10,323 nucleotides of DNA, taken from UHGV virus genome UHGV-1840329; one strand, 5' to 3'. Positions 4,408 through 4,992 of this stretch are shown in pieces. The notes under the pieces were generated by a model. The model worked only from the letters and a program-made list of their open reading frames with translations, made no database searches and had not been told where the DNA came from. The stretch's first letter is position 1. Each line of letters starts with the position of its first letter. A program made the translations under genes and the position numbers. Origin of the DNA: a virus.

Positions 4408-4992
4408 ATGAAAAGTATCCAGGACGTCCGCAGGCAAAATCTCAACGACTTGATCGACCGTGAATTCAATGGTGTTCAGACGCGGATGGCAGAAAAACTT
4501 GGAACTCAGGCAAATCTGGTAAACCGCTGGGCTCTTGGCAAGAAGGTTATCGGCGACCAGGTTGCACGAAAAATTGAAGCTGCCGCCAATAAACCCCGTA
4601 ACTGGCTTGATATTGATCGTTCGCTTTCTCAGGAGGGTTTTCAGCCTGTCGGCCCGAGCGATATAGGTCAGCTGGCGGCTCACAACCTGGAACGCTGGAT
4701 GAGCGAAAGCCGCGACCTTTCAACACAGGGAAAACTTCACCGCGCATCCGGCGTCGCCCAGGTGACAATCAGCCGCCTGTTAAACAATGAGGTCAGCGTT
4801 TCCATTTCCACCCTGGAGAATGTTGCATCCGCATTCGGGCGTCACGGATATGAACTACTGATTCACCCGCACGACCCTGCGACTATCAACTATGACCGCT
4901 CACGCTACGCATTGTTACCCGAAACCGAGAAAGCAAAGATCGAAAGTTACATTGAATTTGTCATCAACCAGAACGAAAAAAGCAAACAATAA
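4408..4992 (+). CDS. Phage repressor (cI-like), tandem HTH domains, no S24 peptidase domain
   Basis: 194-aa ORF. N-terminal XRE-type HTH (GVQTRMAEKLGTQANLVNRWALGKK) and a second HTH-like segment (SGVAQVTISRLLNNEVSVSISTLENVASAF). Too short for a LexA-like autocleavage domain and none is recognisable. No Shine-Dalgarno upstream of ATG 4408 and no in-frame alternative start after the upstream stop. Confidence 0.75.
   Translation: MKSIQDVRRQNLNDLIDREFNGVQTRMAEKLGTQANLVNRWALGKKVIGDQVARKIEAAANKPRNWLDIDRSLSQEGFQPVGPSDIGQLAAHNLERWMSESRDLSTQGKLHRASGVAQVTISRLLNNEVSVSISTLENVASAFGRHGYELLIHPHDPATINYDRSRYALLPETEKAKIESYIEFVINQNEKSKQ

Follow-up and report, generated by a model that had tools for sequence, protein, structure and literature searches.

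A SPC32H-type repressor with two helix-turn-helix domains in phiV10-like prophages of Escherichia coli and its probable release by a LexA-controlled antirepressor

The open reading frame (ORF) at positions 4408..4992 of the DNA analysed here very probably encodes the lysogeny repressor of a Uetakevirus, Rep, which belongs to the same type as the repressor of Salmonella phage SPC32H and would be released by a LexA-gated antirepressor, Ant, rather than by cleavage. The analysed stretch (hereafter the window) is 10,323 bases long and is 100% identical to positions 1568754-1579076 of the E. coli Combat2C1 genome (NZ_CP019243.1), where it makes up the early region, on the integrase side, of a prophage of ~40 kb that is integrated beside guaA. 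On sequence grounds, this prophage is a Uetakevirus, that is, a podophage of the phiV10/epsilon15-like type. Positions 4000-5300 of the window, which encompass rep, share 97.5% DNA identity with Escherichia phage phiV10 and are matched in 561 of the 5,426 complete E. coli genomes (~10%); the ant region is matched in about 523-530 of these genomes.

Under the mechanism that we propose, the basic N-terminal helix-turn-helix (HTH) of Rep would read 15-bp palindromes at the divergent early promoters on both sides of rep, as well as sites elsewhere in the prophage, whereas the second HTH-fold domain would be responsible for dimerisation and the last ~40 residues would join the dimers into a tetramer, the DNA-binding form of the protein. 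Upon DNA damage, self-cleavage of the host LexA would free the LexA box in front of ant, and the 85-aa Ant would then bind the C-terminal part of Rep and split the tetramer into dimers, which would leave the DNA and thereby allow the lytic genes to be switched on. Cleavage of Rep itself is not expected because the protein has no peptidase domain. Given that the prophage encodes a second Ant-like protein, induction may not depend on the small Ant alone.

Domain organisation of Rep and its structurally characterised homologue

The 194-aa ORF on the plus strand, from which an earlier note on this DNA had started, is a real gene: the same coding sequence is annotated in RefSeq and in the phiV10 record. 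The Rep protein is 99.5% identical to the orthologous phiV10 gp40 and ZX5 ORF21, the former of which carries the GenBank note 'putative transcriptional repressor; two helix-turn-helix motifs (PF01381); similar to putative repressor epsilon15p38', and it is assigned to transcriptional regulator/repressor families in PHROGs. The Pfam HTH_3 profile matched two stretches of Rep, the best one at residues 106-147 (E = 1.2e-9), and residues 21-61 produced a Cro/YdaS-type HTH match that falls below the Pfam cut-off (E = 3e-4). An AlphaFold model built on an alignment of 51 homologous sequences (mean pLDDT 82.5) contains two helical domains, at residues 4-59 and 84-151, which are separated by a low-confidence linker (74-83), and a tail after residue 151 that closes with a long helix (172-193). 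A model generated from the single sequence (pLDDT 45) was discarded. The two HTH-type domains proposed in the earlier note are borne out by both the profile matches and the model, but the second one, placed there at residues 120-150, begins nearer residue 106; the two-domain layout is correct as far as it goes and misses a third module, approximately residues 153-194, that is equivalent to the C-terminal domain of SPC32H Rep. When compared to each other with hhalign, the two HTHs were aligned in register with a probability of only 13.5%, and there is no evidence of a recent duplication behind them.

A phmmer search against the PDB sequences matched residues 1-190 of Rep to residues 2-197 of 5D50_A ('Repressor', 199 aa; E = 3.5e-42) and also yielded a match to 5D4Z_A, a C-terminal fragment of SPC32H Rep (E = 3.6e-20). 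These two entries represent the Rep protein of Salmonella phage SPC32H in complex with the antirepressor Ant (5D50) and alone (5D4Z). In tblastn comparisons, Rep showed about 43% identity to both SPC32H Rep and epsilon15 gp38. The modules of Rep, along with their identity to SPC32H Rep, are as follows.

4408..4623, plus strand: residues 1-72, N-terminal Cro/XRE-type HTH, putative operator-binding domain, 53% identity
4624..4671, plus strand: residues 73-88, variable acidic linker, modelled with low confidence, 25% identity
4672..4863, plus strand: residues 89-152, second HTH_3-type domain with a net charge of 0, counterpart of the middle (dimerisation) domain in SPC32H Rep, 34% identity
4864..4989, plus strand: residues 153-194, C-terminal module that corresponds to the CAD of SPC32H Rep (p53-like tetramerisation/Ant-binding), 47% identity over residues 153-190

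SPC32H Rep is described as having three domains: the N-terminal one binds DNA, the middle one serves for dimerisation, and the C-terminal one, which is p53-like, is responsible for both tetramerisation and Ant binding (PMC9986798). The window Rep, as judged from its sequence, has the same three-module architecture. According to PMC9638917, SPC32H Rep sits on DNA as a tetramer in which the DNA-binding pairs are drawn from different dimers, and an Ant tetramer grips two Rep dimers such that the Rep tetramer is broken. The N-terminal domain of the window Rep is the best conserved of its modules and carries a net charge of +5 (mean of +4.1 across the 51 homologues). The middle domain, by contrast, is close to neutral in the same set, a pattern consistent with the N-terminal domain being the only one that binds DNA. 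The C-terminal module contains the conserved motif P.D...I.YD..RYA.LP..EK.KI; the beta-strands expected in a tetramerisation module are absent from the monomer AF2 model of Rep. From this comparison, we infer that the window Rep is an SPC32H-type repressor that would bind DNA as a tetramer, interact with Ant and not undergo SOS cleavage, with the oligomeric state and the Ant contacts being extrapolated across an only moderate identity to SPC32H Rep.

As to the peptidase, neither Pfam nor NCBIfam produced an S24 match to Rep even at E <= 10, and no S24 fold was found among the structural matches of the predicted model. Only ~106 residues, mostly helical in the AlphaFold model, follow the N-terminal domain and linker. 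An S24 fold in the C-terminal half, which the earlier note had named as grounds for rejecting its claim, was thus detected neither by the domain searches nor by the predicted-structure comparison, and the observation of a repressor lacking this domain stands.

Predicted operators and the surrounding early region

The palindrome TTACC-N5-GGTAA is enriched in the window: with up to two mismatches allowed, it has 10 matches compared to 2.8 expected, a number that none of the 200 shuffled sequences (0/200) reached, and the matches cluster at the promoters on either side of rep. A version of the pattern with a 6-bp spacer was dropped as weak (9 matches, equalled by 1 of the 200 shuffles), the 5-bp spacer being the right register. 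A short inverted-repeat finder run on the window missed the operators, whose arms are shorter than the seed that it requires. The palindromes, which we consider to be the predicted Rep operators at the divergent early promoters, and the accompanying features are the following (the palindromes are given without strand).

1989-2003 and 2051-2065: two perfect Rep-type palindromes in the gap between a P-like replication gene and a DUF1064 gene
3953-3967: Rep-type palindrome with one mismatch, a short way downstream of the terminator at 4001-3982, in front of a gp40-like gene
4023..4253, minus strand: cro-like gene, 76 aa, divergent from rep, homologue of epsilon15 gp39 and phiV10 gp41
4279..4307, minus strand: promoter-like site TTGTTA-17-TATTAT directed towards the cro-like gene, overlapped by the palindrome at 4290-4304
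4290-4304: Rep-type palindrome with one mismatch, between the divergent cro-like gene and rep
4321-4335: Rep-type palindrome with two mismatches, in the same interval
4338-4352: perfect TTACC-N5-GGTAA palindrome, in the same interval
4408..4992, plus strand: rep, prophage lysogeny repressor, 194 aa, ATG start, from the ORF listing
5013..5040, plus strand: intrinsic terminator downstream of rep
5050-5064 and 5112-5126 (within 5050..5126): perfect Rep-type palindromes bracketing the early-left promoter-like site
5084-5112, plus strand: strong early-left promoter-like site TTGACA-17-AATTAT, downstream of the rep terminator

The product of the cro-like gene matches phrog_35, 'transcriptional repressor' (E = 6e-13). 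In SPC32H, the interval between rep and the cro-like gene also contains three palindromes with similar spacing, and the GenBank record of epsilon15 shows repressor-binding sites at positions equivalent to those in the window, including the one corresponding to 1989..2065. In the prophage as a whole, there are 10 perfect Rep-type palindromes compared to ~0.04 expected, by a rough estimate for 10 specified bases in 40 kb. One of these lies 38 bp upstream of the LexA box of ant, and the palindromes elsewhere in the prophage are found at positions 1544342, 1545863, 1546910, 1564352 and 1567497 of the genome record. The perfect palindromes precede the replication/nin-like region, ant, the BRO-N module described below, and the portal and terminase regions. 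Because such sites extend beyond the immunity region, it appears that many prophage promoters may be silenced by Rep directly.

The operator at 5112-5126 is contained within a longer hairpin-forming palindrome (5109-5142; TTACCTC-N14-GAGGTAA, 13 pairs) located directly before the first early-left gene; it could possibly reflect either an additional, third half-site of the operator or a structure formed in the RNA. The first gene past the early-left promoter is a 50-aa ORF (5146-5298, plus strand) that is unannotated in the RefSeq version of the source genome and is homologous to epsilon15 gp37 and phiV10 gp39 (phrog_898, E = 2e-38). Further downstream, at 5597-7528, the genes for a YqaJ-type exonuclease and RecT are separate, as they are in epsilon15; at the equivalent position of phiV10, a single fused recET gene is annotated. 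At the left end of the window, RefSeq marks an Ea22-like ORF (285-923, minus strand) as a partial pseudogene that lacks its N-terminus. An Rfam search of the window returned no known RNA family.

Functional data are available for close relatives of this prophage. ORF21 of phage vB_EcoP_ZX5 (ZX5), which according to the respective paper has the same sequence as phiV10 gp40, abolished free phage when overexpressed and lowered the transcripts of the lysis genes, those for endolysin and holin, by more than 99.9% (PMC9782041). Furthermore, in E. coli isolates from the gut, the microcin Mcc1229 raised the induction of prophages of the phiV10 species 21- and 47-fold; it is one of the bacteriocins that are termed DNA-damaging in the title of the corresponding study (bioRxiv 10.64898/2026.05.26.727859).

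Two Ant-like proteins and alternative routes of induction

The earlier note had argued that a peptidase-less repressor implies an antirepressor or another inducer that acts in trans and might be encoded elsewhere, and had proposed searching the rest of the prophage for antirepressor genes under LexA control. No Ant-like gene was found inside the window; a homologue of Ant is, however, encoded elsewhere in the same prophage, which bears out this expectation in silico.

NZ_CP019243.1 1544433-1544690: ant, 85 aa, outside the window and 28.5 kb from rep in the same prophage, identified by homology to SPC32H Ant

The only PDB sequence matched by the ant product is 5D50_E ('Anti-repressor protein'; E = 3e-47), and the protein is 88% identical to SPC32H Ant; the partner Rep proteins of the two phages are only 34-53% identical per domain. 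In the Combat2C1 prophage, ant is divergent from the tail-fibre gene. A protein database search with Ant, which required shared exact words, retrieved close stand-alone homologues only. Among the 36 phage records with a full-length Rep, 35 also contain Ant. RefSeq and most phage records nevertheless list the gene product as a 'hypothetical protein', no Pfam family covers it, and the PHROGs family to which it belongs, phrog_450, is listed as being of unknown function despite the existing crystal structure.

Upstream of ant, the sequence TACTGTATAAATATACAGTT fits the LexA consensus at 18 of the 20 positions, ends ~20 nt before the start codon and is the only strong LexA box across the 40-kb prophage, making ant a candidate for just the type of LexA-controlled antirepressor gene that had been sought. 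An alignment of the ant intergenic region from six phages (the Combat2C1 prophage, phiV10, SPC32H, epsilon15, Enterobacter phage Tyrion and Klebsiella phage BUCT711, with hosts among E. coli, Salmonella, Enterobacter and Klebsiella) showed that the CTGT and ACAG half-sites of the box are invariant. A simple sigma-70 scan upstream of ant called no consensus promoter. Within the window, LexA boxes were represented by 1-mismatch matches at chance level only, none of them credible, indicating that the SOS input is not local to rep. Across the ~1-kb ant region that was compared, SPC32N and SPC32H differ at two bases, one of which is a C-to-A change in the LexA box. Kim and Ryu in 2013 reportedly described SPC32N as a lytic-prone variant of SPC32H and are also said to have found that a LexA-box mutation makes Ant constitutive, in agreement with this substitution. 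Together with the analogy to SPC32H, these features lead us to infer that ant of the Combat2C1 prophage is likewise controlled by LexA. For SPC32H itself, production of Ant is stated to follow LexA self-cleavage in a review that credits Kim & Ryu 2013 (PMC7380047).

The same prophage encodes, also outside the window, a 230-aa BRO-N protein (NZ_CP019243.1 1546145-1546837; L003 16146-16838) whose C-terminal residues 149-222 share 42% identity with Ant (E = 5e-15), with the domain matching phrog_450 (E = 5e-37). The leader of this gene (L003 15864-16097) contains two elements that score above the Rfam gathering thresholds, isrK (74.7 bits) and a C4 antisense RNA (78.6 bits), and a perfect Rep-type palindrome is located upstream of these leader RNAs; no LexA box was detected at the gene. 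The BRO-N module is flanked by two genes for YafO-family toxins (L003 14715-15221, minus strand, and 17281-17793, plus strand), each with an upstream small ORF; these toxin genes lie between ant and the genes for internal virion proteins, as part of a moron-like insertion that phiV10 lacks. In phiV10, gp23 is truncated within the Ant-like domain. A full-length match to the BRO-N protein is present in 118 E. coli genomes, that is, in only part of those that carry rep. The orthologous ORF4 of ZX5 (80% identity), denoted 'anti-repressor', was overexpressed and caused a ~1000-fold lower prophage titre and a 75% drop in repressor transcripts (PMC9782041).

The induction of phiV10-type prophages by a microcin of the DNA-damaging class would be expected as well if Rep were inactivated by RecA-stimulated self-cleavage, in the manner of lambda CI and LexA, or, as in the case of ImmR, by a dedicated ImmA-like protease. 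The S24 searches, negative at the levels of both sequence and fold, and the short, mostly helical remainder of Rep make self-cleavage highly improbable. The involvement of a dedicated protease is similarly hard to credit because a Pfam scan of the four small ORFs closest to rep, among them those resembling cro and gp37/gp36, gave no match, and no metalloprotease is annotated in the early region in the phiV10 and RefSeq records; accordingly, no ImmA-like (COG2856) protease adjoining rep was found in either the Pfam scan of these four ORFs or the two annotations. We consider either form of proteolysis, neither of which gained any specific support, to be extremely unlikely. Somewhat less remote, although still improbable, is the notion of Rep as a bipartite repressor in which each of the HTH domains contacts DNA, so that two types of site would be recognised. 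The second domain is indeed the stronger of the HTH_3 matches, and it superposes on DNA-binding XRE proteins; however, its net charge is about 0 as opposed to +5 for the N-terminal domain, only one class of palindromes is enriched in the window, and the published description of SPC32H Rep assigns DNA binding to the N-terminal domain and dimerisation to the counterpart of this one. Taking the second HTH for a second DNA-binding unit, as the earlier note could be read, is thus probably wrong.

A more serious contender, albeit one that we still regard as doubtful, is that effective antirepression comes wholly or in part from the BRO-N protein instead of from the LexA-controlled Ant alone. Controlled by a Rep-type operator together with isrK and the C4 antisense RNA in place of LexA, the BRO-N protein would serve as a feed-forward lock on induction or would counteract immunity in trans. 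In favour of this possibility are its Ant-like C-terminal region, the combination of leader RNAs and a Rep-type palindrome in front of the gene, and the effects of ZX5 ORF4. The latter, however, were obtained by overexpression of a GST fusion. Moreover, with no LexA box at its gene, the BRO-N protein alone would provide no SOS sensing; it is absent from the Salmonella relatives, whose records each give a single Ant match; phiV10, nonetheless a viable temperate phage, has it in truncated form only; and it is full-length in only 118 E. coli genomes compared to about 523 for ant. The release of Rep by the LexA-gated small Ant accordingly remains the reading that we prefer, and the features of the BRO-N gene suggest that E. 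coli members of the genus possess a second antirepressor layer, gated by Rep and by RNA. Tentatively, the two layers might form a two-tier circuit in E. coli phiV10-type prophages, in which the LexA-gated Ant would free the operators of Rep and so derepress the BRO-N protein with its Ant domain, the latter being otherwise restrained by the Rep-type operator and by a P1-like C4/isrK antisense RNA module. Should this be the case, the BRO-N protein could either hold the switch in its lytic position or target, in trans, other phages with related Reps, whether these are incoming or co-resident. Such a circuit, which is without description for the Salmonella model, would explain the 'anti-repressor' effect of the BRO-N protein in the ZX5 overexpression study.

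Relationship to known repressor-antirepressor systems

The analogy with Salmonella prophages of the Gifsy kind that the earlier note had drawn holds with regard to the logic of the switch, but the Rep-Ant system of SPC32H is a much nearer precedent. SPC32H shares with the window prophage the genus Uetakevirus, the position and orientation of rep, the homology of Rep over its full length including the three modules, the half-sites and layout of the operators, the location of Ant beside the tailspike gene, and the LexA box. It differs in that its Rep is only about 43-50% identical overall and 34% identical in the middle domain; in the central 5 bp of the operators, which are A/T-rich in SPC32H and more G+C-containing here, so that the immunity specificity may differ; in the host, Salmonella as opposed to E. 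coli; and in lacking the BRO-N/Ant-like protein. The lytic switch formed by SPC32H Rep and Ant is reportedly the subject of the Kim and Ryu article of 2013 in J Virol and of a 2016 PNAS article by Kim and coworkers.

The individual components of the present finding on Rep are already known: the two HTH motifs are noted for phiV10, the operators and the link to 5D50 for epsilon15, where the GenBank record cites this structure and marks the repressor-binding sites, and the structures and the LexA-Ant mechanism for SPC32H. Of phiV10 gp40 and ZX5 ORF21, the almost identical proteins from E. coli phages, the latter was shown to block lytic growth upon overexpression. The ZX5 study, the only experimental paper on the E. 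coli version of the system, overlooked the small ant gene, which is a 'hypothetical protein' in the genome record, and assayed the BRO-N protein instead; the text mentions neither LexA nor SPC32H (PMC9782041). Linking ant to rep should improve the annotation of phiV10-type prophages, which, by analogy with SPC32H, are predicted to be SOS-inducible through LexA and not through cleavage of the repressor.

The combination of a non-cleavable repressor and a small, LexA-repressed antirepressor is also characteristic of CI-Tum of coliphage 186 and of the Salmonella prophages Gifsy and Fels-2. This likeness is functional only, as no homology to these systems surfaced in the database searches with Rep and Ant. 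Kim and Ryu are said to have described Ant as structurally distinct. The antirepressor classes appear to differ between 186/Gifsy and the prophage analysed here, in which Ant, to go by SPC32H, would target the oligomerisation region of the repressor. Finally, the immI region of P1 and P7 (C1 operator, c4 antisense RNA, icd and ant) and the isrK-anrP region of Gifsy-1 are resembled by the BRO-N gene only; compared to P1 immI, this module, located outside the window, has an effector domain that is similar to SPC32H Ant, and its product is a putative antirepressor.
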